64,000 bases of DNA from positions 26,047 to 90,046 of the forward strand of contig JAIFWV010000002.1 in the NCBI GenBank assembly GCA_019659055.1. Direction: 5' to 3'. The notes under the pieces were generated by a model that did not search any database, was not told the DNA's origin, and saw nothing but the letters and a program-made list of their open reading frames with translations. This DNA comes from Candidatus Doudnabacteria bacterium (GTDB lineage: Bacteria; Patescibacteriota; Doudnabacteria; UBA920; O2-02-FULL-48-8). The position numbers and the translations under genes were made by a program. Below are positions 1 to 64,000 of the stretch, piece after piece. The first letter of the stretch is position 1; each line of letters opens with the position of its first letter.

Positions 1-446
1 GCAATAAGTTCTACGTTGTGGATGTTGGATCCAACTGGAATATTTTTGAGCATCATGCGGTTACCCGGCTTGATGTCGGCGCGTTCGGAGGTCATGAGGA
101 TTTCGCCCACTTTGATCCCGTCGGGTGCCAAAATATATCGCTTCTCCCCGTCTTTGTAGGCCAAAAGCGAGATGAAGGCTGATCGTCCTGGATCGTATTC
201 CATAGTTTGGACCTTGGCTGGGATGTTCATCTTGTCGCGCTTGAAATCTACAGAACGAGATTTGAGTCTGTGTCCGCCGCCGCGATGCCGGACTGTGATT
301 TTGCCTTGATTGTTGCGGCCGGCAGTGGTCTTATAAGACTTCAACAAACCGCGAGGGGTAGCCACGCGCTTGGAAAGAACCGAGTAATCGGTGACGGAGT
401 GGATTCTTCGTCCAGGTGAGGTTGGTTTGTAAATCTTGATAGCCAT
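1..446 (-). CDS. rplB: 50S ribosomal protein L2, N-terminal part (gene continues beyond window start)
   Basis: minus-strand translation from ATG(446) reads MAIKIYKPTSPGRR... and later MEYDPGRSAFISLLAYKDGEKRYIL, typical L2; no stop before coordinate 1; follows rplW as in S10 operon. Confidence 0.9.
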   Translation of the reverse strand, partial: MAIKIYKPTSPGRRIHSVTDYSVLSKRVATPRGLLKSYKTTAGRNNQGKITVRHRGGGHRLKSRSVDFKRDKMNIPAKVQTMEYDPGRSAFISLLAYKDGEKRYILAPDGIKVGEILMTSERADIKPGNRMMLKNIPVGSNIHNVELI

Positions 447-448
447 AA

Positions 449-895
449 TTAGATTCCTTCGGCCAGGCCGCTGATCTTCTCGCCGGCCTTAAGGGTAACA
501 TAAGCCTTCTTCCAGTTGCTGGTCTTGCCTGCGATTTTACCTGATCTGCGGGTCTTGCCTTTGATATTCATAATATTTACATCGGCAACATGCACGTCGT
601 AGACTTTTTCGATCGCCTTCTTGACTTCCAACTTATTGGTTGATTTCGAAACGCGGAAGACATAGCGTCCTGAGGCGGACAGTAAATTAGATTTTTCTGA
701 CAAATGATAGTTACGCAAAATGTCGTGGGCGCGGCCGGTGTCCTCTTTCAAAACAACCTGTTTCTTCTCAGAGGCTTCGACTGCAGGCTCTTGGACCATA
801 TCTAAGACATTCTCATCTTTCTGAGTCTTCTTTGAGGCCTTAGGCTTCTTGGCCTCGTCCTCTTTTTTGCCTTTGATGCGGTCTAAAATACTCAT
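449..895 (-). CDS. rplW: 50S ribosomal protein L23 with Lys-rich N-terminal extension
   Basis: C-terminal ~95 aa (YHLSEKS..YVFRVSKSTNKLEVKKAIEKVYDVHV..) match L23; ORF track starts at 943 but the first 48 nt overlap a repeated non-coding intercistronic element, so start at MSILDRI (895) preferred. Confidence 0.8.
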   Translation of the reverse strand: MSILDRIKGKKEDEAKKPKASKKTQKDENVLDMVQEPAVEASEKKQVVLKEDTGRAHDILRNYHLSEKSNLLSASGRYVFRVSKSTNKLEVKKAIEKVYDVHVADVNIMNIKGKTRRSGKIAGKTSNWKKAYVTLKAGEKISGLAEGI

Positions 896-953
896 AAATT
901 CGTGTATCTTGAATCGTGTAGCGTGAGGCGTTTCATGCTTCACGCTTCATGTT
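896..953 (-). repeat. conserved ~60-nt intercistronic element (rplD|rplW)
   Basis: minus strand TAAAACATGAAGCGTGAAGCATGAAACGCCTCACGCTACACGATTCAAGATACACGA.. aligns nearly position-for-position with 9899-9961. Confidence 0.6.
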
Positions 954-1595
954 TTAAGTCTTTAAGTAAGTCTTTTCAATTATATCTAAAGCGTCTTTCA
1001 TGATTATCGAATCGTATTTGAGCAAGTCCAAAATGTTGAGCTGGTTGGCCAAGATCACCTTGGCGTTGGACAGATTGCGTCCGGCGCGTTCGACTTCCCT
1101 GTTTGCAGTCGGGATAACCAATAAAAATTTCTTGCCCAATCCGGCGCGGTCGGCAACTCTGGTGAGCATACCGGACAATTCCTTGGATTTAGCGACGTTT
1201 TCCAATTTATCAACTATGACCAATTTCTTGTCTCGGATTTTATCGGACAAAACGGTAAACAATGCTTTGCGAAAAGCCGAGCGGTTCATCTTGAGCGACC
1301 AATCAACTTCGTTGCGCGGACCAAATGTGATGCCGCCATGGCGCCACAATGGTGAGCGGAAGGAGCCGGCGCGAGCGCGGCCCGTGCCTTTTTGCTTCCA
1401 TGGCTTCTTACCAGTACCTGCGACTTCGCCGCGGGTCTTGGTATGAGCAATAGAACGACGGGCATTGTTTCTCTGGGTGCGCACAGCGGCCCAAACCAGA
1501 TTTGCATCCAATTCTTCCAAACCAAAAATCTTTGGATTCAAATCCAGATCGGAAACTTTTTCGCCAGATTGATTATAAACTGCGGCTTTGTTCAT
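954..1595 (-). CDS. rplD: 50S ribosomal protein L4
   Basis: 213-aa translation with L4 motifs (GTGRARAGS.RSPLWRHGG, KFLLVIP); start ATG overlaps upstream stop (ATGA). Confidence 0.9.
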   Translation of the reverse strand: MNKAAVYNQSGEKVSDLDLNPKIFGLEELDANLVWAAVRTQRNNARRSIAHTKTRGEVAGTGKKPWKQKGTGRARAGSFRSPLWRHGGITFGPRNEVDWSLKMNRSAFRKALFTVLSDKIRDKKLVIVDKLENVAKSKELSGMLTRVADRAGLGKKFLLVIPTANREVERAGRNLSNAKVILANQLNILDLLKYDSIIMKDALDIIEKTYLKT

Positions 1596-2272
1596 AATTT
1601 CTCAAACTGCTTCATTAATTCCGGGTAGTCGGTAAAGATTCCATCGACTCCCAGTTTCCTCATTCGTTCGTACTCGTGCCTATCGTTGACTGTCCAAACC
1701 AAAACTTTTTTTGCCAAAAGTCTCAGGATGAGCATCGTGGCGTAAGAGACATATGTGCTCTGCGGATTTACAGAATAGAGTTTGTCTTTACGAGTCAGAA
1801 AACTAATTATAGTTCGGAGGCTCCATTCGCCTTTGGCGAATATGAGACCCAATTGGACGTTTCCGTCCAAAGTTCTGAACTTCTTCAATACTCCCGGATA
1901 AAACGAGGAGATCAGAACCTTGTGCGGAAAACTTTTTAATTTGGCAAAGACTTGTTCTTCGATGCCATGAACCTTGATCTCGATATTGAGATCGGTATGG
2001 ATCACTGCCAAAACTTCGTCGAGAGTCGGGATTTCGCGGCCGTGTTCGGCGCTGACCCGTTTGATTTCGGACAATACCGTGTCGCGAATCAATCGCGGAT
2101 CACCGAACAATCTCAGCATATCGTGATCGTGGACAACCACGAGTTCGCCGTCTGCCGACTTGCGAACATCGAGTTCCAACATATCGGCACCCATGCTCTC
2201 TGCTTTTTGAAAAGAACGGATTGTGTTCTCCGGTTCGGTACCCGAAGCGCCCCTGTGCGCTATAATCTGCAT
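1592..2272 (-). CDS. glycerophosphodiester phosphodiesterase (GDPD/UgpQ family)
   Basis: 226 aa; N-terminal IAHRGASG..PENT and ELDV..DGELVVVHD motifs typical of GDPD; lies between rplC and rplD with TAAATG and ATGA junctions. Confidence 0.8.
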   Translation of the reverse strand: MQIIAHRGASGTEPENTIRSFQKAESMGADMLELDVRKSADGELVVVHDHDMLRLFGDPRLIRDTVLSEIKRVSAEHGREIPTLDEVLAVIHTDLNIEIKVHGIEEQVFAKLKSFPHKVLISSFYPGVLKKFRTLDGNVQLGLIFAKGEWSLRTIISFLTRKDKLYSVNPQSTYVSYATMLILRLLAKKVLVWTVNDRHEYERMRKLGVDGIFTDYPELMKQFEKL

Positions 2273-2893
2273 TTACTTGATGACTAACTGGACCTTAACT
2301 ATGCCGCCGGGAGCTCCCGGGACTGCCCCTTTGACCGCAATCAGATTCCGCTTGGCGTCGATTTCGATGACTTCCAAGTTTTTCACAGTGCGGACGCCGG
2401 CCATGTGCCCGGCCATGCGCAAACCCTTGCGCACGTGCTGAGGAAACCGGCCGCCGATAGCCCCCACTGCTCGCGGGTGGTCATGGCCATGGGTTGCTGG
2501 TGCGCCGTGGAAACCATGCCGCTTGATAGGTCCGGCAAATCCCCGGCCCTTCATCTCGCCCGTGACTTTGACCATGTCGCCGACTGCAAACATATCGACT
2601 TTGATCTCTTGGCCGCGGCTAAATTTGGAAGCGTCTTCAACTCGGAATTCTATAAGTTTGGCGAAATTGCCCAATTCTTTGGTATGGCCGGCCAGAGATT
2701 TGGTGGCTTTCTTCCGGCGCCCAAAACCGACTTGCACTGCCTGATATTTATCTTTATCCGTAGTCCGGACTTGAGTAATCTTGTTCGGAGCAGCCTTGAG
2801 AATTGTAACAGGAATAACCTTACCATCCTTGGTAAAGATTTGGGACATATGCAATTTTTCAGCGATGATAAACTTGGACATAAGGGTAACCAT
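2273..2893 (-). CDS. rplC: 50S ribosomal protein L3
   Basis: 206 aa; HMSQIFTKDGKVIPVTIL matches L3 N-terminus (GMTQIF...), C-terminal KGKGFAG..HG motif; alternative ATG at 2881. Confidence 0.9.
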   Translation of the reverse strand: MVTLMSKFIIAEKLHMSQIFTKDGKVIPVTILKAAPNKITQVRTTDKDKYQAVQVGFGRRKKATKSLAGHTKELGNFAKLIEFRVEDASKFSRGQEIKVDMFAVGDMVKVTGEMKGRGFAGPIKRHGFHGAPATHGHDHPRAVGAIGGRFPQHVRKGLRMAGHMAGVRTVKNLEVIEIDAKRNLIAVKGAVPGAPGGIVKVQLVIK

Positions 2894-3018
2894 CGCGAGC
2901 GACGTGTTACTAAGAATTTATCTTAGCCGTCGCGTGGCGATCTTTTTTAATAGTTTGCTTCGTCGGTCACAATGCTAACGCTGTGTTTGACCTCCTCGCA
3001 ATGGGCATATTTAAGCTT

Positions 3019-3066
3019 TAAAAAAACCGTTCATGATCCCGAATTATTCAGAAGCCTGAACGGTTC
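3019..3066 (-). terminator. terminator-like hairpin between rpsJ and rplC
   Basis: minus strand: AACCGTTCA...TGAACGGTT 9-bp stem followed by TTTTTTTAAAGC, 50 nt after rpsJ stop. Confidence 0.5.
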
Positions 3067-3118
3067 TTCTAGATTGGCGATTTCCGGGAGGATCTATCCA
3101 ACCTGTATTAAATTGTGG

Positions 3119-3442
3119 TTACATCTTAATTTCAATATCAACCCCAGCAGGGAGATTGAGATTGCTCAGCGCGTCTATGGTTTTGGGTGTTGGGGAGGCA
3201 ATGTCGATTAATCGCTTATGGATGCGCATCTCGAATTGTTCTCGGGCATTTTTGTGCACGAAAGTCGAACGATTGACGGTATATTTGGACTTTTCGGTAG
3301 GCAAAGGGACTGGGCCGATAACCTCAGCACCAGTTCGTTTGGCCGTCTCCACAATCGAGCGGGCAGATTGATCAATAAGCTTATGGTCATAAGCTCTGAT
3401 TTTGATGCGGATTCTAGCTGAATCTATCTTTTCGGCAGGCAT
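3119..3442 (-). CDS. rpsJ: 30S ribosomal protein S10
   Basis: 107 aa; [39 protein letters not shown] is canonical S10. Confidence 0.92.
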
Positions 3443-3498
3443 TGAGATTTTAAAGGATAAGTTATAACGGATGTTTCCCGACTTGGGGCAACTGGTTT

Positions 3499-3527
3499 AA
3501 AATACACTATTTTTGGCAGTTTGTCAA
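3499..3527 (-). promoter_or_regulatory. sigma70-type promoter for rpsJ (TTGACA-17-TATTTT)
   Basis: minus strand reads TTGACAAACTGCCAAAAATAGTGTATTTT about 55 nt upstream of rpsJ ATG. Confidence 0.6.
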
Positions 3528-3558
3528 CTCCGGGGTTTGGGCGGCAAAGACCCAAAGG

Positions 3559-3586
3559 ACTACCCCGAGACCGGGGTAGTCCTAAG
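3559..3586 (-). terminator. rho-independent terminator downstream of tuf
   Basis: minus strand: GGACTACCCCG-GTC-TCGGGGTAGTCC hairpin followed by TTTGGGTCTTT. Confidence 0.7.
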
Positions 3587-3590
3587 TGGC

Positions 3591-4790
3591 TTATTTGGTG
3601 ATTTTGAGTACTACACCGGCACCGACTGTGTGTCCGCCTTCGCGGATAGCAAAGCGCTGTTTTTCTTCCAATGCAACCGGGGAAATCAGCTTAACTTTGA
3701 TAGAAACTGTATCGCCTGGCATGACCATTTCCTGGCCGGCTGGCAATTCAACTTCGCCTGTAACGTCTGTGGTTCGGATGTAGAATTGAGGCTTGTAGCC
3801 CTTGAAGAACGGAGTGTGTCGTCCGCCTTCTTCCTTGTTGAGGACATAGACTTCAGCGTCAAATTCGGTATGAGGAGTAACTGAGCCTGGCTTGCAGAGT
3901 ACTTGTCCGCGCTCGACTTCGTCCTTCTTGGTTCCTCGCAAAAGCACACCCGCATTGTCGCCTGCTCGGCCTTCGTCGAGTTGCTTGTTGAACATTTCGA
4001 TACCAGTGACTACGGTCTTGGCGGTTGGGCGCAAACCCATGATTTCGACTTCATCGGAAACTTTGACAATACCGCGCTCGATACGGCCAGTAACAACTGT
4101 GCCGCGGCCTTCTATGGAGAAGATGTCTTCGATAGCCATAAGGAATGGCTTGTCGATGTCGCGCACTGGTTCTGGGATTTGAGCATCCAAAGTTTCGAGA
4201 AGTTTAACAATGGAATCAACACCGGCCTGGTCGCCCTGAATCGCTTTGAGAGCGCTTCCGCGGACGATGGCAGTAGTTTTGCCGTCGAAACCGTATTTGG
4301 TGAGCAGGTCGCGGACTTCTTCTTCGACGAGGTCGAGAAGTTCCTGGTCTTCCACCATATCTACCTTGTTGAGGAAGACGACGATTGCTGGCACGCCAAC
4401 TTGCTTAGCCAAGAGGATGTGTTCGCGGGTCTGAGGCATTGGGCCGTCGACTGCGTTCACAACCAAAATTGCACCGTCCATCTGGGCGGCACCGGTGATC
4501 ATGTTTTTGACATAATCAGCGTGGCCCGGACAGTCGACGTGTGCGTAGTGTCTGTTTGGGGTTTCGTATTCGACGTGTGAGGTCGAGATGGTCAAGATCT
4601 TAGTTGGATCTCGGCGACCTTGTGATTCTGACGCCTTGGCGACTTCATCGTAAGGGACGAACTTTTTGGTCCAGCCCTTATCGAAGGAGACTTTGGTCAA
4701 AGCGGCAGTGAGAGTGGTTTTGCCGTGGTCGACGTGGCCGATTGTACCCACGTTGACGTGCGGCTTGGAACGTTCAAATTTGTCTGCCAT
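3591..4790 (-). CDS. tuf: elongation factor Tu
   Basis: [22 protein letters not shown] GTPase motifs; start taken at [15 protein letters not shown] (4790) rather than track 4808. Confidence 0.95.
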
Positions 4791-5328: not shown

Positions 5329-5912
5329 ATGCAATTTTTTTGCTATAAATACCTTACGGCAAAAACAAAACATTTGGTCTTTGGATTCGTGGGAGACTCC
5401 GGGTCTGGCAAATCCACTCTCATGATCGAACTTCTCAATTTCTTCCCGCATCTTGAGATAATCAAATCCACTTCCACCAGAGCGCGGCGCGACGACACTG
5501 ACGATTTGTTCTACAAGCTGGTCGGTATGGATTATATGGACAATCCCGAAAACCAGAAGAATTTCCTCAATCACGAAATCTATGCGGGCAATCATTACGT
5601 CTACGAGCGCTCTATCCTCGACCAGGTTCTGCGCTCACATTGCGGCATGTTTGCCATCATCGAATCCGCTGTGCCAAAAATCCAGAAAGCAGGATACGAT
5701 GTACGACTCATCAAAGTCGTCCCAATTGTGACTGGGATTTGGATCGGACTCGAGAGCGCCAGAGCGAAGACCAGCTTCGCGCCACGCAAGGCGGATTGGT
5801 TTTTGATCTCGTTATCGAAAACTCATTTCGGCCCGGCGGATTGGAACAATCAGTCGAGACTGCCGCAAAATTCATTCAGGACCAAATCCACGGGCACCAC
5901 CCCGGGAATTGA
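5329..5912 (+). pseudogene. gmk: guanylate kinase (gmk-like) with apparent +1/-1 frameshift near nt 5725-5745
   Basis: frame 1 gives P-loop GDSGSGKST and STSTRARR (TTRxPR motif); alignment to Gmk continues in another frame (track ORF 5640..5912: LDRTRERQSEDQLRATQGG..FDLVIEN..); frame-1 tail after the shift is low-complexity. Confidence 0.6.
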
Positions 5913-5960
5913 CAGAACCCCCCAGAACAGGTATAAATAGGAATCATTAACGGAGGATTC

Positions 5961-6227
5961 ATGAGTATCTTGGATCGACTCTTTGATTTTTTCCATCGTA
6001 CCGAGGACACCCGGGCCACTCCTGTCTTGGAATACGTGGCTCCTCCCCGCGAAGTCACCAAGTACCATCTGCACGACCACGAGTTCGAGGGTCTGGTCGA
6101 TCACTACTTGGCAGACGAGTACTACATCGACGTGGAGCGGGCGAAGCTCCACCTCAAAGACTGCAAGGAATGCACCGACGTTTTCTGCGGTTTCTGGAAT
6201 CGCATGAGACGGCAGAAGGTCGCCTAA
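5961..6227 (+). CDS. hypothetical small His/Cys-containing protein (88 aa)
   Basis: SD GGAGGA 7 nt before ATG; His-rich HLHDHEFEGLVDH and C-terminal CKECTDVFC; stop overlaps next start (TAATG). Confidence 0.55.
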   Translation: MSILDRLFDFFHRTEDTRATPVLEYVAPPREVTKYHLHDHEFEGLVDHYLADEYYIDVERAKLHLKDCKECTDVFCGFWNRMRRQKVA

Positions 6228-6502
6228 TGTCTCGCTACAGAGGACTAGGACGAGCTCGAACCCGGGCCAACCGGGGCGCGCGCGAGAGCGCAGACATACG
6301 GTTACTAGAGGAAGAATACCTGAGACTCCATCCCGAGATCCGGGGGTTCGAGGACAGAATCTGCTTAATAGCCCCGAACTGCCCTGATTTTGATCGCAGA
6401 CTCCCGTTCAGAATTCCGTACTGCGATCCCCATGTGCGTGAGTGCGAAAAATGCCAGGAAAAAATGGCAGCATCCGGATTCCCATATCCAAAGGAGCGTT
6501 AA
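6227..6502 (+). CDS. hypothetical Cys-rich small protein (91 aa, zinc-ribbon-like)
   Basis: ATG overlaps upstream stop (TAATG); Cys pattern C..NC...C..HVREC..EKC; basic Arg-rich N-terminus. Confidence 0.5.
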   Translation: MSRYRGLGRARTRANRGARESADIRLLEEEYLRLHPEIRGFEDRICLIAPNCPDFDRRLPFRIPYCDPHVRECEKCQEKMAASGFPYPKER

Positions 6503-6741
6503 TGCCAGTCACAAAACTTGCTTCGGCGGTAAACGCGATCACCATCCCAGCCGATGACCTGGTTCAGACGGTCAGTGAGCACGAGAGACTGGGCGAGCGC
6601 ATAATCGCTACAGTCCCAGGAGGACTTCAACTCAAAAGGACCGGAAGCGGGCGCAATAGCGTGATCGAAGTCATCCCGACTTCTTTCACCCTCATTCTCG
6701 GGCAAGAGAGACACCGCGACTACCGAAACGGTGAATCCTAA
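6502..6741 (+). CDS. hypothetical protein (80 aa)
   Basis: perfect AAGGAG 6 nt upstream, TAATG coupling to previous ORF; followed by terminator. Confidence 0.5.
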   Translation: MPVTKLASAVNAITIPADDLVQTVSEHERLGERIIATVPGGLQLKRTGSGRNSVIEVIPTSFTLILGQERHRDYRNGES

Positions 6742-6751
6742 TCGCTATCGC

Positions 6752-6786
6752 GGCGTGGACGTACATACGTCCCGCCGCTTTTTTTA
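6752..6786 (+). terminator. rho-independent terminator
   Basis: GGCGTGGACGT-ACAT-ACGTCCCGCC hairpin then TTTTTTTAT. Confidence 0.65.
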
Positions 6787-6854
6787 TTAATTGCTTGCGC
6801 TCGCTAGCATTATTTTTATTTGTTAAAATATTTTCAAACCCTACGGAGGCCCTA

Positions 6855-7076
6855 ATGGATTTTCAGGAGAAATCCGTCAGCTTTCATCAGTTCACTGCAG
6901 ACGTGGACAAGCTGAGAATTTTGATGATGTGCTATCGGACTTGCGAACAACCCAAAAACACCAACCCTGACACTGACGAGGTCGTAAACGCTTACAATCA
7001 TATGTTTGGGCATGGCGGACGATGCCAAGAATGCTTCCCCTATGCCGTCAAGCTACTCAGTCTCCTGGAAAATTAA
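6855..7076 (+). CDS. hypothetical zinc-ribbon-like small protein (73 aa)
   Basis: SD GGAGG 5 nt before ATG; CYRTC ... CQEC Cys pairs. Confidence 0.5.
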   Translation: MDFQEKSVSFHQFTADVDKLRILMMCYRTCEQPKNTNPDTDEVVNAYNHMFGHGGRCQECFPYAVKLLSLLEN

Positions 7077-7239: not shown

Positions 7240-9372
7240 TTATTGTCCGACTTGTCCCACGCGGACTTTGCCAGATTCGCCGATAATTTTCTCGGCCACA
7301 TTTCTTGGCACTTCCTCGTATTTGAGAAACTCCATAGTGTAGGAAGCCTGTCCCTGGGACATGGATCGGATTTGGGTGGCGTAGCCAAACATTTCCGCCA
7401 GCGGGACTTCTGCGTCAATTATTTTGAGGTTGCCGCGATCGGTCATTTCAAGGATTTTGCCGCGCTTGGCGTTGAGGTCGCCGATGACATCGCCCATGGC
7501 TGATTCCGGGGTCGTGACCTCGACTTTCATAATCGGTTCGAGAATGATTGGGTTGGCTTTTTTCACGGCGGACTGGAAAGCCATGGATCCGGCAATTTTG
7601 AAAGCGATTTCAGAAGAGTCAACCTCGTGGTAACTGCCATCGTAGAGCGTGGTTTTGACGTTGAGCACTGGGAATCCGGCAATAACGCCGCGATCCTCTG
7701 CTTCCGCAATACCTTTTTCTATCGGTTTGATATATTCCTTGGGTACGGTGCCGCCAACGATTTCATTTATAAATTCATTGCCTTTCTCTGGATCATCCTG
7801 CGGTTCGATTCGTATCCAGACGTGACCATACTGACCCTTACCGCCGGTCTGGCGGATGTATTTGCCTTCGGCATCAGCTTTACCGCGAATAGTTTCTTTG
7901 TAAGCAACTTGGGGTTTACCAACATTGGCCTCGACTTTGAATTCGCGCTTCATGCGGTCAACCAAAATTTCCAAGTGCAGTTCGCCCATACCCGCAATCA
8001 AAGTTTGCTGGACTTCTTCGTCAGTGCTGACTCGGAAAGTCGGATCCTCTTCTGCGAGTTTTTGCAAAGCCAAACCCATCTTTTCTTGATCGGCTTTGGT
8101 CTTTGGTTCGATAGCAACCGAAATAACCGGTTCTGGGAATTTGATCTTCTCAAGCATTACAGGGAAATCGACATCACAAAGCGTATCGCCAGTGAAGGTA
8201 TCTTTCGGCCCGACCAGGGCCGCGATATCGCCGGAATGAACTTCCTTAACCTCTTCGCGGGAATCGGCATGCAATCGGACCAAGCGGCCAACACGTTCTT
8301 TGTTTCCGGAACGGGCGTTTAGAATATATGAACCGGCTTGAAGGACTCCTGTGTAAACTCGGAAGAACGCCAATTTGCCGACAAAGGGGTCAGTTGCGAT
8401 TTTGAATGCCAAGGCTACAAACTTGTCGCTATCGTTTGGAGTCAGTAAAATTTCTTCTTGAGTCTTGGTATTGATAGCCTTAATCGGGGGCTTATCTAAC
8501 GGTGAGGGCAGGTAGTTCACTACCGCATCCAAGAGCGAAGTCACGATAAGTCCGCGTCCATCTCCGCCGAGGACTGGGAAAAACTTTCCCGACAAGGTCG
8601 AGGTTCGGATAGCTTTTATCAACTCCTGGTCGCTGATTTCCTCGCCGGCCAAATATTTTTCCATGAGAGCATCATCTGATTCGACAACTTTTTCTATGAG
8701 CTTCAACCGGTACTCGCGCGCTTTCTCAAGCATGTCGGCTGGGACTTCGCCTTCGGTAAAGGTCTTGTCCTTGTGCTCCTTGTATGTATAGGATTTCATC
8801 TTCACCAAATCGACAATGCCGTTGATGTCTTTTTCAAACCCAATCGGTAGTTGGATCGGGAAGGCGTTGGGCGACAAGCGCTTGTGAATCGCATCCAAAG
8901 ATTTATAAAAATCGCCGCCAGTCTGGTTGATCTTGTTTATAAAGCACATGCGGGGTACTGCGTATTTGTCGGCTTGGCGCCAGACGGTCTCGGACTGAGG
9001 TTCTACACCCATCTTACCGTCGAAGACCACGACTGCGCCGTCGAGCACGCGTAAAGATCGCTCGACTTCGACTGTGAAGTCCACGTGTCCGGGGGTGTCG
9101 ATGATGTTGATGCGGTGAGTGTCGGGAGATTTACCGCCAGATTGCAGTGTCCGCGACCAAAAGCTGGTGGTGGCCGCCGCGGTAATCGTGATGCCGCGTT
9201 CGCGTTCCTGCTCCATCCAGTCCATGGCAGTGTTGCCTTCGTGGACTTCGCCAATCTTGTGGATCTTGCCGGTATAAAACAAAATCGACTCGGTAGTGGT
9301 GGTCTTACCGGCATCGATGTGGGCAATAATCCCGATGTTTCTGGTTTGTTCTAGGCTGTATTCTCTAGGCAT
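7240..9372 (-). CDS. fusA: elongation factor G
   Basis: 710 aa; [21 protein letters not shown] motifs and full EF-G domain order. Confidence 0.95.
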
Positions 9373-9394
9373 TTAAAAAATTTTCAGTTGTAAA

Positions 9395-9898
9395 TTATCT
9401 TCGCTGGAATCGGGCAAAGTGGGCAAAAGCTTTATTGGCTTCGGCCATGCGGTGCACGTCTTCGCGCTTCTTGATAGCCGCACCCTGCTTGTTGAAGGCT
9501 TCCATAAGTTCGGTGGCCAGTTTTTGGGCCATGGGTTTGCCTTTTTTGCCGCGGGCGGCGTCGATAATCCATTTCATGCCGAGCGCGGTCTTCCGCGGCT
9601 CTTGCACTTCCATAGGCACTTGGTAGTTGGCACCGCCAATACGGCGGCCTTTGACTTCCAGAATCGGACAGACATTGCGTACTGCCTGCTCAAAAATCAT
9701 TTTGCCATCGGTTTTGACCCCGTCCTTGGCTGGCATTTCTTTTTCGATAATATCCAAAGCGCCATAGACGACTTTATTGGCAATAGTTTTCTTGCCGCGT
9801 TCCATGACGTAGTTTATAAACTTCGACAGCTTGACGCTGTTATACTTGTGGTCCGGATCCACCGGATGCTTCTTGTATGATCGTGCTTTTCGTGGCAT
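9395..9898 (-). CDS. rpsG: 30S ribosomal protein S7
   Basis: MPRKARSYKKHPVDPDHKYNS... canonical S7; track N-terminal 15 aa overlap the repeated intercistronic element so start at 9898 preferred. Confidence 0.88.
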   Translation of the reverse strand: MPRKARSYKKHPVDPDHKYNSVKLSKFINYVMERGKKTIANKVVYGALDIIEKEMPAKDGVKTDGKMIFEQAVRNVCPILEVKGRRIGGANYQVPMEVQEPRKTALGMKWIIDAARGKKGKPMAQKLATELMEAFNKQGAAIKKREDVHRMAEANKAFAHFARFQRR

Positions 9899-9961
9899 AT
9901 ATTTGGTCGTGATTCTTGAAACGTGGATCGTGAATCGCTTCACGTCTCACGCTTCACGTTT
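9899..9961 (-). repeat. conserved ~60-nt intercistronic element (rpsL|rpsG)
   Basis: minus strand ATAAAACGTGAAGCGTGAGACGTGAAGCGATTCACGATCCACGTTTCAAGAATCACGA.. Confidence 0.6.
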
Positions 9962-10793: not shown

Positions 10794-10803
10794 CGGAGGG
10801 TTT

Positions 10804-56280: not shown

Positions 56281-58743
56281 TTATTTAAGCAATTCATATC
56301 GGAAAAGTTTAGGCTGTATTGCAGTTTCATAATATTTGGCTACTGTTGTCCTTAAACCAATTATTGCCGTATTTAACTGAGGATTATCGTAAATTATTTC
56401 ATCGTTTTCATTTTTATGATATGTATTAAGTTCGGTATCAATTTGGTAAGTACCATATTTATATTCTGGGTTATATCCTTTTGTTCTTTTAGCTTTCTTT
56501 AGAACATCTTTAAACAAGTATAATAATTCCTCTTCTTCTTTTGTGAGTTTATAAGCTTTCAAATAGTTACTCGCTATCGTTGAGCTATCAAAACAGAGTT
56601 CGTTCCTATAAAATCTCCCATCGCTCCCATGAAAGCTTCGACAATGATTACGTCGACTTAAACAGGTGAATATAAAACAGCTTTTCAGAAAATCCTTATC
56701 CTTCAGGTAACGATCTTTTCCATCAGCGGTAGTAAAAAATAAATCACGTTCAAACCAATTTTTTTGTGGATAAAGTTTGGCGGCAAAAAGCGGCAATTTA
56801 TCTATGAAATTGTCAGTGCGTAAATAGAAGCCATTTTTTCTAGCATTTAATGTTGTCCTCACCAATGCTTGCTTTGGAGCTCCCAATGTATAGCCAACCA
56901 AATATTCGTACCCTAGAATATTTTCATTGAATACTTTTTCAGTACTTGTTGCCCCCGTTCTCTCTGCTTCATTTCCACTACTATCACAGTAGATACCATC
57001 TAGGCTGTCATCATTGAATTTCCGCTTATCAAAGTAAAACTCGTTGAAAGTGGTGTGAACTTTTTTCACCAAGATATCTTTTACAAATAAGGTACGATCA
57101 TCTTCTTGTTGCGGAGTATTTTTCGTGTCTATGTCAAAAGCTTTAAGCGACAGCTCTTCTTTACTTTCTGGCAAATTTTGCCACAAAATACAACTAATTG
57201 CAGACTTAGAAGCATGGAAATGTTCTCGATTAAATAAAAACCCTTCTATAAATTGATGTTCCCCCAGGCCGTGTGATTTCCAATATTTTATCGGGGAGAA
57301 AAGAATGAAAGCATCATGGGGTTTTGTCAAATAATATTTCCAACCAGACCAGATAAATAAATTGGCAATATCCTTAGACGGGATCATGCCTTTTATTTTC
57401 GAAGTAAAAAACTTTTTAAATTCGTTCGCAATAAAACTATCTTTTTTAACATCTCGAGTTAAGCCTTCCAGTCTAACCTTATCAGCACTCGTATCACTAT
57501 ATGGTGGATTTTCATATAAAATAATATTTGTCTTTGGATCTTTGATATACCTTAAAAGTGTTGCGATACTGTCACTGTATTCTGAAGTCATTCCTAGTGA
57601 CTTTTGGCCTGTGACAAATTCTAAACTGAGTGCATCGCCTCCTTCCACCAAAGCTTTTCTACTGCTAACTTCTTGTGGTGGTGGAATAATTAGTTTGACT
57701 CGATCTCCAATTCTTTCATTCAAAACTACCCACTCTTTCAATTCATAAGTATTTACTATTGTATGGGATAACTCATTATCAAAAATGTAGTCGCGTATTT
57801 TTATTGTTGTCTCGTATTTCTTTATTTCCTTAAGAGTGATTTCGTTTATTTTCTTACTTGCCCTTCCAAGAATAATATCAATACCAATACCTGTACTAGA
57901 AATGTACTCTTTCTGAAAGCTTTCATCGATATATTTACTAAGCTCACCAATTGTGATATCGTCTACTTTTTTATCAGTCAGAAACTCTTCTAGATTTCCG
58001 GTTCCTGCACAACGATCAAGAATTATATAATCATGGCCTGTGGGTATCCTTTTAATAGCTTTTCGAACTAATCCCGTAGCTTTGAGACAATATGCAGGTG
58101 GAGTATAAAAAGCTCCAAGTTCTTTTTTATGTTGCTTATCATTAAGCAAGTCCATAATATATTTAAAATCTGGCTCATCTCCTTTCCATGGATATATAAA
58201 ATGTACGAAATGCTTAGGCTCACGGAATTCCTTAAACAGTTTAATTTTGCTGGCATCCGGATTTTCGCGATAAAATCTGTTAGCCCAGCCAACAACGTCG
58301 AATACATCAATGTGAACTTTCGTATAATCTTCTCTCTCTAAAATTTCTGTAATTCTTCTTAGCCCTAATAATTTACTGTAATCAATCTTTTCGGGTTGAA
58401 TTTTAGTGTTAAATTCAGTATTATTTCTGCTAGCTGCCCCAGCGTATATTTTTTCTATATCTTTTAAAAAGTCACCTGAACTAAAAAGGTAAGCATTCTC
58501 CTCATTTAGCGCGACCAACAATATTTGAGCTGGGATAGGATCACCCTTTATTCTGCGGTGACTTAAATATTTGATGGCTTGAAGCAGGACTCTATTAATA
58601 TCTGGTATAGTTAATTTAAACTCAAAAAGAGTACCTTTATATACACCATCGGTATTATTTGTAAGCTCGATATCGGTACTAATTTTCAAATCAGTAAAAA
58701 ATCTGACTTGGCCTTCACGTTCTGATAAGAATTTATTACTCAT
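56281..58743 (-). CDS. MmeI-like Type IIL/IIG restriction-modification enzyme (N-terminal PD-ExK nuclease + gamma-class N6-adenine DNA methyltransferase + C-terminal target-recognition region)
   Basis: 820 aa in A+T-rich DNA; D-x8-EFK near N-terminus; motif X GAFYTPPAY, motif I ILDRCAGTGN, motif IV ENPPYSD in gamma-class order. Confidence 0.65.
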   Translation of the reverse strand: MSNKFLSEREGQVRFFTDLKISTDIELTNNTDGVYKGTLFEFKLTIPDINRVLLQAIKYLSHRRIKGDPIPAQILLVALNEENAYLFSSGDFLKDIEKIYAGAASRNNTEFNTKIQPEKIDYSKLLGLRRITEILEREDYTKVHIDVFDVVGWANRFYRENPDASKIKLFKEFREPKHFVHFIYPWKGDEPDFKYIMDLLNDKQHKKELGAFYTPPAYCLKATGLVRKAIKRIPTGHDYIILDRCAGTGNLEEFLTDKKVDDITIGELSKYIDESFQKEYISSTGIGIDIILGRASKKINEITLKEIKKYETTIKIRDYIFDNELSHTIVNTYELKEWVVLNERIGDRVKLIIPPPQEVSSRKALVEGGDALSLEFVTGQKSLGMTSEYSDSIATLLRYIKDPKTNIILYENPPYSDTSADKVRLEGLTRDVKKDSFIANEFKKFFTSKIKGMIPSKDIANLFIWSGWKYYLTKPHDAFILFSPIKYWKSHGLGEHQFIEGFLFNREHFHASKSAISCILWQNLPESKEELSLKAFDIDTKNTPQQEDDRTLFVKDILVKKVHTTFNEFYFDKRKFNDDSLDGIYCDSSGNEAERTGATSTEKVFNENILGYEYLVGYTLGAPKQALVRTTLNARKNGFYLRTDNFIDKLPLFAAKLYPQKNWFERDLFFTTADGKDRYLKDKDFLKSCFIFTCLSRRNHCRSFHGSDGRFYRNELCFDSSTIASNYLKAYKLTKEEEELLYLFKDVLKKAKRTKGYNPEYKYGTYQIDTELNTYHKNENDEIIYDNPQLNTAIIGLRTTVAKYYETAIQPKLFRYELLK

Positions 58744-58900
58744 AGGATCTCATATTATTTAAAAGATATTCGGTATCCTAAGCATACCAAAAAGCCGCCT
58801 TTTTGGCGACTTCAGTGATTACGTAATAAAAAAGTACCTCAATTATTACACAGCTTGCTTCAAAAAGCAAAAAGTTCGTACTCCCTCTCAATGAACCAAA

Positions 58901-59362
58901 TTAAGCTTTATTTTTAGCTTCTTGGATAATAATATTTACTAAGTCATTCAGTAATATATATCCGTAAATAAAATTTAATAAAACTATTCCTGAGAATGGT
59001 AGTATATAATAATTTGATAATAATAATTCATTGCTTAATGTCTGTTTTATAAAAAAATTAATTAATAATAAATACAAAACAGTTATTAATATCAAATCAA
59101 GACCAAATTTAAACCTTTTCATCAAAGTGTGGAGTAAAGTCAGGCTTGGATTCTTGTTATCAATAGTTTTATACAGGTCAGATACATATTTTGACGTTAC
59201 AAAAATCGCTAGACTGGTAATATAAAACCCAAAAACAATCGAAAGAAAGATTATTACATTATCAACCACCTCTGTGTGTAACTTCATACCGCCATAAGTC
59301 CAGTATTGTAACAAACACATTATTAATAAAAATAGAACTACATAGATTTTCTTTTTATTCAT
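58901..59362 (-). CDS. hypothetical 4-TM membrane protein (153 aa), A+T-rich
   Basis: four hydrophobic helices; start overlaps upstream gene stop by 8 nt. Confidence 0.5.
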   Translation of the reverse strand: MNKKKIYVVLFLLIMCLLQYWTYGGMKLHTEVVDNVIIFLSIVFGFYITSLAIFVTSKYVSDLYKTIDNKNPSLTLLHTLMKRFKFGLDLILITVLYLLLINFFIKQTLSNELLLSNYYILPFSGIVLLNFIYGYILLNDLVNIIIQEAKNKA

Positions 59363-60167
59363 GAATTTTTTTGATTAATTCGGAGACCAATTCTTTATTA
59401 ATAAATTTTCCATTCTTTCTATTCATTGGTGCCAGCAATGTTATTTTACTAATTACTTCCTGAGTATTGAAAATGCTTTCAAAATCCTCTGAGGTGCGAC
59501 CTATCACCGTAATATTTTTATATTCTGTTTTATTTTTTATAATATCTTTCACTTTTTCATATAATTGTTTTCCGATCTTCTTCTTGTTTTTATAAACCAA
59601 CTTAATAATAGCCTCTGTCGCACCAAATCCAAAAATATCTTCCCTTAGTCTTGCAGGCAACCCTATGCTAGCGGAATTCAGTAAATCCGGTTCTACCGTA
59701 AAGCATATTTCTTTTATAGATTCTATCTTATCAATAAATTCGCGTTGAGCTATCAGAGGCTTGACGGCAATTTCCTTTTTTATTTTATCCTCAAGCCAGT
59801 TTATAAGAAAGCCCTTTTTTCTGAGATCTGAAATATAAATTCTAGAGGTCAGTAAGTCGACGAGCACATAAAATTGCTCATTTAATTCAACCTTGTCAAT
59901 TGATCTGGGATTGAGGCTCTCTTTGAGCTTAGAATCAATAACTTTCTCAGAATAAGGAAACTTATTACCTTCCTCAAAACAAAGTGCAATAAACCGTTCT
60001 GGAATATACTCCTTTTCAATTTTTTTAATATTGAGAAGATCTTCTCCGATTGTTTGCTTTTCAAAATTGGCTTCGTCGATAGCGGCAAAGTTAGCCAATT
60101 CGGGCTTTTTGCCACCGATTATTAGTTGAAAAATGGAAAATTGTATCTCTTTTAGATGCTTCTTCAT
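59355..60167 (-). CDS. hypothetical protein (270 aa), A+T-rich, no recognisable domain
   Basis: long ORF in ~30% GC DNA, Lys/Glu/Ile-rich; preceded by hairpin AAAGACGGC..GCCGTCTTT. Confidence 0.5.
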   Translation of the reverse strand: MKKHLKEIQFSIFQLIIGGKKPELANFAAIDEANFEKQTIGEDLLNIKKIEKEYIPERFIALCFEEGNKFPYSEKVIDSKLKESLNPRSIDKVELNEQFYVLVDLLTSRIYISDLRKKGFLINWLEDKIKKEIAVKPLIAQREFIDKIESIKEICFTVEPDLLNSASIGLPARLREDIFGFGATEAIIKLVYKNKKKIGKQLYEKVKDIIKNKTEYKNITVIGRTSEDFESIFNTQEVISKITLLAPMNRKNGKFINKELVSELIKKIHE

Positions 60168-60834: not shown

Positions 60835-61092
60835 CTACCCGGTAAAGATTCCTTTCCCGGTTAAGATGGTGTGAATCGCCATCTCCAAGTTCACTGGCTC
60901 TGGCCAATGCTTCACGGGGTTGAGGCTGTGCCGCAGATGCACCACCAACATTCCGAGAGCAATGTCCTCACCTACGAGCGTCGCTGCCCTCCGGAACCCT
61001 TCCTCACCGTCGGTCGTGATGATCTTGGCCGCCCGCTGTATTTTGGAAAACTCCACTATGCCCTCCTTGATGATGACTTGTGAGTGTAACAA
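60835..61092 (-). CDS. hypothetical protein (85 aa)
   Basis: ORF with terminator hairpin GGTCTCAGAA..TTCTGAAACC + T6 at 60790-60825. Confidence 0.4.
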   Translation of the reverse strand: MLHSQVIIKEGIVEFSKIQRAAKIITTDGEEGFRRAATLVGEDIALGMLVVHLRHSLNPVKHWPEPVNLEMAIHTILTGKGIFTG

Positions 61093-61109
61093 ACTCGGGA
61101 GGGAACGTC

Positions 61110-61136
61110 AACACCCGAGACGGGGTCTCGGGTGTT
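61110..61136. repeat. 27-nt hairpin repeat copy (perfect 11-bp stem AACACCCGAGA/TCTCGGGTGTT)
   Basis: downstream of 61198 gene stop, followed by A-rich run. Confidence 0.6.
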
Positions 61137-61197
61137 AAAAATAAAAAAAGGCTGGGTGAGTTCCGTAAAGAACTACACCCAAGCCTTGTGCTTCGAT

Positions 61198-62763
61198 TTA
61201 CCAGCCGAAAGCGTGACGGTACCCGACTGACACGCTCTGTCTGAACCCTCGTGAGGTATTGGATTGCCCGACCACCGGCACCGAAGCGCTCCACCCGAGG
61301 TAAGCGCCTTTGTACCCAGCTTCGGCCGTATAGAACCCAACCATAGTGATCCCGTGCCCGAGCCCGAACGGATTGTTGTCCGTGCCGAGCGCGAACCGGT
61401 GCGCCAGTCGCAGGTCTTTCCCCAAGCCCGCCGAATGGTTGAACCCGGTTGCGAGCTTGAGTATGGTACCGACTGGGGGACTTGAGCCGTTGGTGCGGAA
61501 ATAATGCAACAACGTCGCACCCAATGGCAATTTACGTTTGCCGAGCTTCACCGAGCCCGATTTGGATCCTCCGAACTGGATGACGTCCCCGCCACGAATG
61601 AAAAATTTCGTGAGAGAAAAGTTCCAACCCGATCTGGCCCACCCAACCCCGAGATCTGACTCCATGTTGAATCCCAAACCAAACGAGTTCCAGGAATCCA
61701 CATAGAAATCACCCGCGGACGTCAAGCGCGTGTACCTCGCAAGCACCCGAGGTGCCGGCTTGGGCGCGAAGATCTCGCCTACTGCCATGCCATGGTACTT
61801 GTTCACACCCTCGAATGAAAGCGCAAACGAGTTCTTCGGCTTTTCCGGCGCATCGGACACCGACTGGTTTACAATCAGCGTATGTTCGCTGTCGCGCTTC
61901 TTCTGGTTGTCAGCCTTGCCGGACTGAGCCAACGCCATGTTGGGCACAGCCACGGTAAAGAAGAACGACACGGCCATGGCCACCTGGCGCATGAACAACC
62001 GGGCCAGTTCCTTGAATCCTTTAGGTGAAGGGAATCGCCAGAACATCACCGGCCAGCATGCGACCGCAAAGATTGCCTGGAGCGCAAACATGGCTCTGGG
62101 ACCGAAACCACGCAGCTGCGAAGGATCGATTTCTAATGCCAAAATGCCTGCCCAGAACATCATCGCGGCGCCAAGCATGGTCCAAAGGTACATCTGGCCC
62201 AAGAACAATGCCAGCGGAGCAAAGTCCCAATGCCAGACTTGCGGTTCGAAACTCTCGTACTCCCGAAGCTGTGGATCTGCTGCAGCCAGCTTTTCGTACT
62301 CCTGCTTCAGGCTGGGGCTATTCCAGTATGACCCTTCTTCGAAGTACCTCGTCAGCTCGACTTTGGCGTTCTGGATCTTCCTGAGCGCTGCCTTCGAGTC
62401 GTTGCGAGGAGTTGGCGGACCGCCAATGCCAGGCTTATCCAAGTATTGACCCTTGTTGACCGGCTCCCAATCCATGGCAACCGATTTCTCAAGCAGGGTC
62501 AGTTGGCGCATATGCTCTAGATGCTTCTGCGCCGTGTACGGAAACGATGGACCCATGGGGCCGCCGGAACTGCCCAGCTTTTTGGCCTCGCCCATGATGA
62601 TGTCGACTTGCGAGTCGGCGTAAGACGGCGCGATCGATGACATGATTCGGGAGTCCCTGGCCAACCAATGAGTCTTGTCCATGATGGCGCGGCTGGGAAT
62701 CAGCAACGCAAACATGGCGGCATACAGGACGTACGCCGTGACAGAGTAAACCTTCTTCTTCAT
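61198..62763 (-). CDS. hypothetical secreted/outer-membrane-like protein (signal peptide, internal TM-like stretch, C-terminal beta-rich domain ending ...RHAFGW)
   Basis: SD AAGGAGG before ATG at 62763 (MKKKVYS.. signal peptide); G+C-rich; aromatic C-terminal residue pattern like OMP barrels. Confidence 0.5.
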   Translation of the reverse strand: MKKKVYSVTAYVLYAAMFALLIPSRAIMDKTHWLARDSRIMSSIAPSYADSQVDIIMGEAKKLGSSGGPMGPSFPYTAQKHLEHMRQLTLLEKSVAMDWEPVNKGQYLDKPGIGGPPTPRNDSKAALRKIQNAKVELTRYFEEGSYWNSPSLKQEYEKLAAADPQLREYESFEPQVWHWDFAPLALFLGQMYLWTMLGAAMMFWAGILALEIDPSQLRGFGPRAMFALQAIFAVACWPVMFWRFPSPKGFKELARLFMRQVAMAVSFFFTVAVPNMALAQSGKADNQKKRDSEHTLIVNQSVSDAPEKPKNSFALSFEGVNKYHGMAVGEIFAPKPAPRVLARYTRLTSAGDFYVDSWNSFGLGFNMESDLGVGWARSGWNFSLTKFFIRGGDVIQFGGSKSGSVKLGKRKLPLGATLLHYFRTNGSSPPVGTILKLATGFNHSAGLGKDLRLAHRFALGTDNNPFGLGHGITMVGFYTAEAGYKGAYLGWSASVPVVGQSNTSRGFRQSVSVGYRHAFGW

Positions 62764-62918
62764 AACTTTCTGCCTCCTTGATTTTCGCGAATGTACGCAA
62801 CCGAAACTGAACTGCAAAGTATAACAAATTGCTGACGTTTCGTCAACCCGGTTAGCCCTCGGCTTATTTCCTACACGCTCTCACCTTTTATGTTAAACTG
62901 AATGCAAAGGGAGGAAGC

Positions 62919-63158
62919 ATGGAAAAAATATATGACTTGGTACTCTTCTGTCCCAACTGTCGTAAGTGTTTCAATCCGGGAGAAGTGGGAATGTCTCTGG
63001 CGGAAGATGTCTGCATGACGGGCAATTGCCCGAGTTGCGACACGTCCGTCTTTTCCCAAACGACAATCAAAAAACTCAAGGAGGATATCCAGGTTTACGT
63101 AAACGAACAGACGAAAAAACAACTCAGGTTGGTTGCAGTAAACGGCAGAGCGGTGTAG
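62919..63158 (+). CDS. zinc-ribbon small protein (79 aa)
   Basis: CPNCRKC ... CPSCDTS two CxxC pairs; SD GGGAGG. Confidence 0.5.
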   Translation: MEKIYDLVLFCPNCRKCFNPGEVGMSLAEDVCMTGNCPSCDTSVFSQTTIKKLKEDIQVYVNEQTKKQLRLVAVNGRAV

Positions 63159-63304
63159 CTATGCAGAGAACAAACTAAAACGCCTCATCTCCAAACGGAA
63201 TGAGGCGTTTCTATTTCTAACTATTTAGTGTCGGGCAAACCAGGAAGTAGAAATTTTTTGTTATTTTGTATGCAAAATAACAATCGGCGAAGCCGAAAAA
63301 ATTT

Positions 63305-64000
63305 TCACTTCCTGGCAAAGTGCCGGCCGCCGTTGTCGCGGCGCGGACCACCGTGTCCGCCGCCATCTCGTGGTGGGCGCGGGCGGTCATCGATAGTGCC
63401 GCCCTCTGGACGAGGGAGGAGAATTTTGTGCGAAAGGTTGATCCGGCCCATGTGGTCGATCTCGACAACTTTGACTTCGAGCTCGTCGCCGATTTTGACG
63501 ACGTCTTCAACTTTGCCGACGTGAGTCCAGGCCAGTTCCGAGACATGGCAGAGACCGTCTTTACCGCCGGCTAGTTCCACAAACGCGCCAAAGTCCATGA
63601 TCCGGACAACTTTGCCTTTGAAGACTTCGCCGACTTTGATGTCGCGAGTGAGATTATGGATGATCTCGAGCGCCTTCTTCATGCCTTCGGCGTTGTTGCT
63701 GGCGACCATCACCAGTCCCGAATCTTCAATATCGATCTTCACACCGGTGTCGGCAATGATTTTGTTGATAATCTTACCGCCCGAACCAATGACGTCGCGG
63801 ATTTTATCCGGATTGATCTGCATGGTTTCAATGCGGGGTGCCAGAGGTGACATTTCGGGCCGCGGGGCGGAAATAGTTTTCTTCATGACGTCGAGGATGT
63901 GCATACGTCCTTCGCGGGCTTGCGTGAGAGCTTGCTCGAGAATTTCGACAGTGAGGCCGCGGGTTTTGTTGTCCATCTGCAGGGCGGTAATTCCCTTTTC
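63305..64000 (-). CDS. pnp: polynucleotide phosphorylase, C-terminal KH + S1 domains (gene continues beyond window end)
   Basis: KH motif [13 protein letters not shown]1 domain [30 protein letters not shown], Arg/Gly-rich tail; ORF open at 64000. Confidence 0.85.

Follow-up and report, generated by a model that had tools for sequence, protein, structure and literature searches.

Two classes of genes, with and without Shine-Dalgarno sequences, in a 64-kb genome segment of a Candidatus Doudnabacteria bacterium

Leaderless mRNAs and mRNAs led by a Shine-Dalgarno (SD) sequence are mixed in the genomes of Actinobacteria and Deinococcus, in which operon-internal genes normally keep their SDs. For the Bacteroidia Flavobacterium johnsoniae and Prevotella, an anti-SD (ASD) that is present but sequestered by bS21, bS18 and bS6 is reported, together with A-rich start regions (PMC9976891, PMC13000453); one F. 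johnsoniae gene with a strong SD, rpsU, is described (PMC13000453; see also PMC9976891). About half of the Parcubacteria, members of the Candidate Phyla Radiation (CPR), are without the CCUCCU motif in their 16S rRNA (Tsurumaki et al., 2022, PMC9297842), and translation initiation in the CPR has hardly been studied by experiment. Here we describe initiation signals in a stretch of 64,000 nucleotides (the window; positions 26,047 to 90,046 of contig JAIFWV010000002.1, assembly GCA_019659055.1) from a metagenome-assembled genome (MAG) of an ultra-small Candidatus Doudnabacteria bacterium. Its genes fall into two classes, SD-less and SD-led, with different initiation signals and with differences in composition, length, strand, annotation and conservation. 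The same split recurs in several, not all, of the contigs that are related to the window or that bear homologues of J1, a 521-amino-acid (aa) SD-led protein.

The arrangement resembles each of these systems in part. As in Actinobacteria and Deinococcus, leaderless expression beside leadered SD-led genes is suggested, here by -10 boxes that end 6 nt ahead of the ATG of several first genes without an SD; unlike there, operon-internal core genes (rplD, rplW, fusA, rpsG) are also without an SD. As in the Bacteroidia, the core is without SDs, the upstream regions are A/U-rich and weakly structured, and a minority of genes have strong SDs. Compared with F. johnsoniae, the window belongs to a different phylum and has strong SDs on 26 of 79 genes, which are accessory ORFans, where translation of the Bacteroidia type would confine strong SDs to very few genes (rpsU, prfB). 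With the loss of the ASD in Parcubacteria it shares membership of the CPR and a lowered reliance on SDs, and the MAG is labelled as Parcubacteria-group (Doudnabacteria); that work, however, concerns a 16S feature only and holds no second, SD-led class (Tsurumaki et al., 2022, PMC9297842), and in the present lineage the ASD would be retained.

Pairing was scored at 79 curated starts as the duplex energy of positions -20 to -3 against the assumed 16S tail 5'-CACCUCCUUA-3'. Genes at or below -8 kcal/mol were classed as SD-led (n = 26) and the remaining 53 of 79 as SD-less. The energies were bimodal, with 36 of the 79 starts at or above -2 kcal/mol and 26 at or below -8 kcal/mol. Ribosomal protein, elongation factor (EF) and aminoacyl-tRNA synthetase genes all lay between -5.7 and +1.7 kcal/mol, a near-absence of SDs upstream of the core. 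A preliminary description of this DNA had named rpsJ, tuf, fusA, rpsG, glyA, leuS and metG as SD-less, which their energies bore out (+1.7, -3.2, +0.4, -0.7, -1.3, -0.7 and -1.0 kcal/mol, respectively), and Pfam confirmed the identity of the backbone genes (S10, EF-Tu, S7, SHMT, LeuRS, MetRS and many others); rpsL scored +0.7 kcal/mol. Alternative in-frame starts within the first 60 codons rescued an SD in none of the backbone genes.

The SD-led genes carry cores of 5-9 nt of the AAGGAGG type (8 AAGGAGG, 1 AAGGAGGTG, 11 six-mers and 6 GGAGG), placed 4-6 nt from the start in 19 of the 26. Configurations of an SD hexamer, a start codon and an open reading frame (ORF) of at least 60 aa numbered 28, against 3.4 +/- 1.8 (maximum 9) in Markov resimulations. 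Start-like triplets internal to genes reached -8 kcal/mol in only 2.5-3.3% of cases in both classes, so that the SD signal is not made by local composition. Annotation by the Prokaryotic Genome Annotation Pipeline (PGAP) was identical to 17 of the 20 SD-defined ORFs tested, and most SD-led ORFs show codon-position periodicity (GC1>GC2<GC3, the G+C fractions at the three codon positions). The ORFs at 20211-20378 and 21295-21492 have no such periodicity and are of doubtful coding status; some of the small ORFs between 19 and 22 kb were recognised partly by their own SD, and some of the tiny ones at 20-22 kb may be spurious.

The places at which the preliminary description had located G+C-rich islets with strong ribosome-binding sites all contain an SD-led ORF (5961/6502/6855, 10572/10804/11278/12357, 20185-21854, 31021, 33890, 45183/46022, 50397, 62763 and 62919). 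Its list was real but overlooked four SD-led units (19008-19575, 36463-36729, 40057-40410, which encodes a STAS-domain protein, and 60835-61056), and its statement that strong SDs run throughout the listed ranges needs two exceptions, at 6227-6502 (-4.6 kcal/mol) and 21866-22063 (-1.5 kcal/mol).

Composition separates the classes as well. Of the per-gene comparisons that the preliminary description had proposed as its check, those of G+C content and third-position G+C (GC3) gave significant differences. In a window of 46.9% G+C, and with a low-GC island described below excluded, SD-led genes have a G+C content of 52.6% and SD-less genes one of 47.7% (p = 4e-5), while GC3 is 0.62 and 0.54, respectively (p = 2e-5), amounting to +4.9 G+C and +8.6 GC3 points; the G+C gap persists among genes of at least 90 aa (p = 2e-4). 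The earlier claim that the islet genes are G+C-richer thus holds as a significant difference between overlapping classes, since 7 of the 26 SD-led genes (G+C 0.43-0.49) do not exceed the backbone and values of 0.50-0.53 are seen among ribosomal genes. SD-led genes are shorter (median 88 aa vs. 211 aa) and lie on the plus strand more often (10 of 26 vs. 4 of 53; p = 0.0014). Their products have more arginine relative to lysine (R/(R+K) 0.55 vs. 0.41), more cysteine (1.5% vs. 0.6%) and fewer Phe, Tyr, Met, Ile, Asn and Lys (FYMINK) residues, and a Pfam family above threshold was found for 2 of the 26, compared with at least 38 of the 53 SD-less genes (p = 4e-8). Both G- and C-ending codons are enriched in SD-led genes, and this shift in relative synonymous codon usage is uncorrelated with the C-ending bias of ribosomal protein genes (r = 0.06); it therefore points to a different compositional history or process, not to selection for translation speed, and translational selection was rejected as the source of the high GC3. 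The proposal that accessory genes have the strongest translation signals applies to those that are G+C-rich; it fails for the low-GC island at 56-60 kb, which is accessory yet SD-less. That island (56281..60167, minus strand, 25-34% G+C) consists of three genes without an SD and provides a contrast case. Its 820-aa protein has AFYTPP and NPPY motifs, suggestive of an N6-adenine methyltransferase or a restriction-modification fusion, and had no match in Pfam or PADLOC.

Start regions are likewise distinct. The minimum free energy of folding of positions -30 to +30 is -9.5 kcal/mol for SD-led and -5.8 kcal/mol for SD-less genes (p = 5e-5). In the upstream regions of SD-less genes A+T makes up 69%, and A alone accounts for 53-59% at positions -5/-4. 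A -10 hexamer ends 6-10 nt before the start in eight SD-less genes, and exactly 6 nt before the ATG in five of these (starts 35242, 44371, 48829, 52280 and 52535), which suggests that their transcripts are leaderless. The -10 boxes of SD-led genes lie 20-54 nt upstream. Consensus promoters precede SD-led units at 5909, 10503, 11173, 22279 and 45340, and terminators are present too, so that the islets have the appearance of proper transcription units. An extended promoter motif, TTGACAAAAT..CCAAAAA..TATAAT, occurs before three SD-led units (10503-10531, 11173-11201 and 45312-45340), with 0 occurrences expected by chance, and the promoter of rpsJ, in the S10 operon (3499-3527), matches it with 3 mismatches.

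Comparison with other genomes places the SD-less core in its lineage. The EF-G gene (fusA, 7240-9372, minus strand) has a best identity of 73-74% among 185,579 species genomes, to MAGs labelled uncultured Candidatus Saccharibacteria or Patescibacteria, and of 70% in JGI metagenomes; the lineage is therefore poorly sampled. At seven orthologous core genes the nearest relatives (loci L001-L003) are also SD-less, while many other CPR or Saccharibacteria loci have SDs of -6 to -9 kcal/mol on the same genes and Firmicutes -10 to -13 kcal/mol. The SD-less core is thus a lineage trait with a patchy distribution in the CPR, which fits the loss of the ASD reported for a subgroup of Parcubacteria (PMC9297842). 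Neither the window nor any of the fetched loci contains an rRNA gene, and rpsU is absent from the window.

The SD-led genes are distributed differently. Islet A (5329..7076) and islet B (10503..12357) have no homologues in 80 fusA neighbourhoods, all from distant relatives (at most 74% EF-G identity). The spacer between fusA and tuf is compact (160-470 bp) in L004, L005, L088 and L089; in the window, L001 and L002 it is enlarged by SD-led ORFs that are unrelated. Homologue searches beyond Pfam covered two SD-led proteins, those of 11278-11913 and J1; the only match of the former in 5.8e9 proteins was itself. In the four J1-bearing contigs for which third-party gene calls were used, SD-led genes lie 8.5 GC3 points above the locus median and the rest 1.8 points below it (p = 4e-5). 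SD-led, G+C-rich blocks are also visible in other SD-poor CPR contigs. L146 has them at 3288-6700 and 12376-13924, with a response regulator directly after fusA, and L086 has one at 4023-8863 that includes purA and a gene for a radical-SAM enzyme.

The J1 gene (61198-62763, minus strand, G+C 57%) provides the most extensive comparison. Its family comprises 23 other clusters at 50% identity among 1.84e9 representatives. The five contexts examined (L081, L082/L083, L084, L085 and L086), assigned to the CPR by gene content only, are all SD-poor contigs with CPR-like gene content. In 5 of 5 contexts the homologue has a G+C content of 0.54-0.60 on a backbone of 0.37-0.50, with GC3 of 0.65-0.79, and stands 9-18 points above its neighbours. 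At the aligned start, an AGGAGG-type SD is present in three of the five (L081, L085, L086) and a weaker GAAAGGA in the other two. L081 and L085 are syntenic (RecR-J1-DnaB); their neighbouring genes are ~78% identical and the J1 copies 48%, and from such comparisons the family appears to evolve fast. J1 G+C content partly tracks that of the host (slope 0.37, r = 0.76, n = 6). The N-terminal part of the protein is helical or membrane-associated. The C-terminal domain is confidently modelled by AlphaFold2 (pLDDT about 85) as a closed antiparallel transmembrane beta-barrel of 12-14 strands, with a sequence ending in an aromatic residue (...AFGW), and Foldseek matched it to Tsx, NanC, PcoB, KdgM and autotransporter barrels (E = 3e-6 to 1e-4), so that an outer-membrane-type beta-barrel is predicted. 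Such a barrel is odd in a genome that also codes for a sortase (52594-53187) and for an ice-binding-like protein with an LPSTG anchor (53177-54091).

The reading that we favour, with confidence about evenly balanced between its being right and wrong, is that of a two-tier genome at the level of the lineage, in which an SD-independent core coexists with a flexible, fast-evolving and compositionally distinct pool of SD-using genes. The conserved genes of this CPR/Patescibacteria lineage would have stopped using SD pairing, and the core would initiate at A/U-rich, weakly folded starts, with some first-in-operon genes leaderless and operon-internal genes managing without an SD too. The second tier would consist of short, mostly lineage-specific genes, often on the opposite strand, with third positions shifted toward G and C, canonical SDs at optimal spacing and, usually, sigma-70 promoters and terminators of their own. 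The ribosome would retain a usable ASD, because 26 well-spaced SDs and the retention of SDs in J1 homologues at 31-48% identity are otherwise hard to explain. The flexible genes may depend on their SDs because their G+C-richer, more structured 5' regions would be unable to use the unstructured-leader route. The pool would change as genes are gained, lost or exchanged between related CPR genomes, not through recent import from one high-GC donor. SD-poor lineages and atypical accessory genes are each known; combined in a CPR sub-lineage, they would make the SD a mark of the flexible pool.

Several points weigh against this reading. The function of the ASD is something that we infer, in a group in which CCUCCU is so often missing (PMC9297842), and neither a transfer event nor a donor or mobility gene came to light. 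Beyond the window, J1 is the one SD-led family that has been traced. Between L081 and L085, absence affects 4 of 9 SD-led and 6 of 29 SD-less genes, which is not significant (p = 0.2), and in the same comparison an SD-led DUF378 gene (L085) is 85% conserved. Turnover alone does not explain the persistently high GC3 of J1 across saturated divergence, for which repeated replacement, biased gene conversion in recombining genes and selection on mRNA structure are possible causes. Finally, when 45 SD-less CPR loci were put through a crude motif-first test, no general GC3 excess appeared (+0.007), compared with +0.080 in the window and +0.136 in L146. SD and G+C are therefore associated in some lineages only, not as a rule of the CPR, and a link in all SD-less CPR genomes was rejected.

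A more far-reaching version of the two-tier reading, which we hold to be doubtful, would have two initiation 'dialects' in one CPR sub-lineage, an SD-independent one for the vertical core and an SD-based one for a compositionally distinct, fast-turnover pool that includes small Cys-rich proteins and the barrel. The pool could be translated by ribosomes in a distinct state, as a regulon that can be switched like that of bS21-free ribosomes in Flavobacterium, or it could circulate among CPR genomes as a shared, mobile pool with a lasting G+C and SD signature of its own.

The SD-led genes might instead be native and vertically inherited, forming a resident class with separate translational control that selection keeps SD-dependent and G+C-rich, for example a regulon whose translation requires a free ASD, in the way of rpsU on bS21-lacking ribosomes of Flavobacterium. 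We judge this rather unlikely. In its favour are the G+C excess of J1 in all five other genomes, its strong SD in three, the syntenic pair and the partial tracking of host G+C, as well as the conserved DUF378 gene, the agreement of three islet promoters with the rpsJ type, the inclusion of regulators and proteases (STAS, M50) and the precedent in Bacteroidia (PMC9976891, PMC13000453). Against a resident class stand a third-position shift that is a general, mutational-type G+C shift and not translational selection, the 24 of 26 proteins without a Pfam family, the lack of any other homologue of the 11278-11913 protein, the absence of islets A and B from the syntenic sites of relatives, and an orientation that looks random. 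The preliminary description had offered two readings, a distinct expression class and recurrent acquisition of genes from SD-using donors of higher G+C. The accessory character that it saw is supported (the G+C shift, the more frequent Arg and rarer FYMINK residues, the strand, the few Pfam families, the absence of islets A and B in relatives); the import itself fares less well, with no donor or mobility gene, J1 confined to CPR-like contigs, and promoters of native type. In its recent form, with SD and G+C not yet ameliorated after transfer from a non-CPR donor such as a host bacterium, we regard import as improbable. Non-CPR homologues of J1 were absent among the 1.84e9 representatives, the five examined contexts (of 23 clusters) were CPR-like, the 11278-11913 protein is an orphan and 7 of the 26 SD-led genes are not G+C-rich; the native-type islet promoters, the synteny of J1 in L081 and L085 and the conserved SD-led DUF378 gene argue in the same direction. 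Recent import would, on the other side, suit codon and amino-acid shifts that resemble a genome of about 55-60% G+C, a barrel fold that is typical of diderm (two-membrane) bacteria in a genome with a sortase and an LPSTG-anchored protein, and the purA and radical-SAM genes with the same signature in L086.

The islets share with genomic islands their atypical G+C and codons, absence from relatives, richness in ORFans, mixed orientation and, in one case, a position beside a tRNA gene. They differ from them in being tiny (0.3-2.3 kb), in occupying at least 12 sites, in having native-type promoters and neither mobility genes nor flanking direct repeats, and in that one family, J1, persists across genomes with the same signature. 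Pfam and PHROG scans found no mobility genes, and repeat analysis found no direct repeats flanking the islets. That a single prophage or integrative element, broken up by rearrangement, left the islets behind is very improbable. Islet C does adjoin tRNA-Pro and has one strong promoter ahead of its many tiny ORFs, tRNA-Leu is duplicated in its 3' part and a 105-nt repeat occurs at the edges of islets A and C, but SD-led genes occupy at least 12 separate sites, integrase, transposase and structural genes are absent, and the repeats at the islet edges are in inverted orientation, with 12.5 kb and core genes between them. The 10 largest proteins had no match in PHROG families, nor did 2,495 aa of islet proteins in tblastn against 50,697 phage records or the J1 alignment against IMG/VR, and metagenome scans with the J1 alignment found nothing; a phage or prophage origin was rejected on the empty phage-record tblastn, PHROG and (for J1) IMG/VR searches. 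PADLOC gave no match for islet or low-GC-island proteins, and an origin in defence systems was rejected as well. The least credible explanation, to which we give almost no weight, is an artefact of chance ORFs, mis-called starts or chimeric assembly. A few ORFs of 47-65 aa at 20-22 kb are without codon periodicity and the source is a MAG contig, and yet the configurations exceed simulation 8-fold, the calls agree with PGAP, most ORFs have GC1>GC2<GC3 periodicity, backbone lies on both sides of the islets within one 93.8-kb contig, and the pattern recurs in independent assemblies.

Should the division into two classes stand, the presence of an SD would be a simple sequence marker by which the flexible pool of these genomes could be told from their core, and a single ribosome-binding-site model would serve them badly in gene calling. 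A lineage could drop the SD on its core and keep a working ASD, which bears on the wide conservation of the ASD. The strongly signalled ORFans, namely the Cys-rich mini-proteins and the barrel protein, would become candidates for host interaction in an episymbiont.

The SD-less backbone of the window lies on the minus strand in three parts. The first (3..4790) comprises part of rplB, rplW, rplD, a GDPD gene, rplC, rpsJ and tuf, with energies of -5.7 to +1.7 kcal/mol and Pfam matches to S10, EF-Tu, L23 and GDPD; its genes have homologues in 32-80 related loci, GDPD excepted. The second (7240..10374; rpsL, rpsG and fusA) is likewise SD-less by its energies. The third (25572..33685) holds glyA, an MFS (major facilitator superfamily) gene, Sua5, leuS, tatD and metG and is broken by a plus-strand SD-led ORF (31021..31395; AAGGAGG at 5 nt; no known family). 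Proteins of the MAG carry locus tags KW788_009xx-012xx and accessions MBX42047xx, and at 90% identity each of those looked up is a singleton.

Islet A (5329..7076, plus strand) occupies the tuf-fusA spacer and has no Pfam family. It begins with a P-loop kinase-like gene (5329-5940) preceded by a weak AGGTG; Cys-rich ORFs at 5961-6227, 6502-6741 and 6855-7076 are SD-led by their energies, and the ORF at 6227-6502 is TAATG-coupled with a weak SD. A promoter lies at 5909, and hairpins followed by T-runs, terminator-like by eye, follow 6741 and 7076; PGAP lists proteins of this islet as MBX4204736-38. The plus-strand part of islet B (10503..11975) has promoters at 10503 and 11173 (TTGACAAAAT..CCAAAA), SD-led ORFs at 10572-10793, 10804-11103 and 11278-11913 (the last with G+C 62% and GC3 0.85), and a 15-bp terminator at 11941-11975; a minus-strand ORF (12028..12357) has the SD AAGGAGGTG at -14.6 kcal/mol. 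Islet C (20003..22279, minus strand) consists of about eight tightly packed SD-led ORFs of 47-99 aa without a Pfam family, two of them identical to PGAP proteins, behind a perfect TTGACA-18-TATAAT promoter at 22279-22250. Nearby, an overlapping pair of SD-led ORFs (137 and 64 aa; 19008..19575, minus strand) without a Pfam family adjoins tRNA-Pro, the 137-aa form differing from that of PGAP.

The remaining SD-led genes are dispersed. Lone ORFs on the plus strand lie at 33890..34168 (AGGAGG at 5 nt; GC3 0.67) and 36463..36729 (a membrane protein; GGAGG at 4 nt). On the minus strand are the gene for the STAS-domain protein (40057..40410; AAGGAGG at 5 nt), an M50 metallopeptidase gene (44473-45183) with a promoter at 45340, whose product is only distantly related to that of an SD-less, syntenic M50 gene at 12384-13019, a 196-aa ORF (45432-46022) downstream of an SD-less ArsR gene and its probable operator palindrome, and a 160-aa ORF (49915..50397; G+C 57%, GC3 0.73) whose PGAP start differs. 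A cluster of three genes on mixed strands (60835..63158) joins an SD-led ORF at 60835-61056 (minus), J1, and a zinc-ribbon-like SD-led ORF at 62919-63158 (plus).

Repeated elements accompany some of these genes. An element of ~105 nt is present in two copies that are ~82% identical, at 7130-7237 (minus), where it follows the stop codon of fusA and borders islet A, and at 19744-19850 (plus), where it follows tRNA-Pro and borders islet C. It is predicted to fold into a very stable Y shape (-45 kcal/mol, z = -5.6); it had no Rfam match, and a search by its 29-nt hairpin core found no copies in L001-L086. The 3' two-thirds of tRNA-Leu(CAA) plus TTTGTA are duplicated exactly over 70 nt (24678-24747 and 24766-24835, with starts 88 nt apart and a gap of 18 nt), which may be the scar of an integration or excision event. 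The palindrome AGGCTAATTCG-TG-CGAATTAGCCT has three copies (46090-46122, 46365-46397 and 49317-49349), which flank the ArsR-family gene (46109-46366) and also precede the SD-led ORF at 45432-46022 and a membrane-protein operon starting at 49254; to judge from this arrangement it is probably the ArsR operator. An intergenic repeat of 74 nt, 94-97% identical, lies at 25495-25568 and 32179-32251, downstream of glyA and metG and upstream of PAP2 and tatD.

Three backbone genes have unusual arrangements. The GDPD gene (1592-2272) stands between rplC and rplD inside the S10 operon and overlaps rplD by 4 nt; all 80 related fusA loci are without it. L23 (449-895) has a Lys/Glu-rich N-terminal extension of ~55 aa, its Pfam domain covering only residues 58-141. 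At 41745-44087, a single ORF of 780 aa fuses glucose-6-phosphate dehydrogenase to 6-phosphogluconate dehydrogenase domains.

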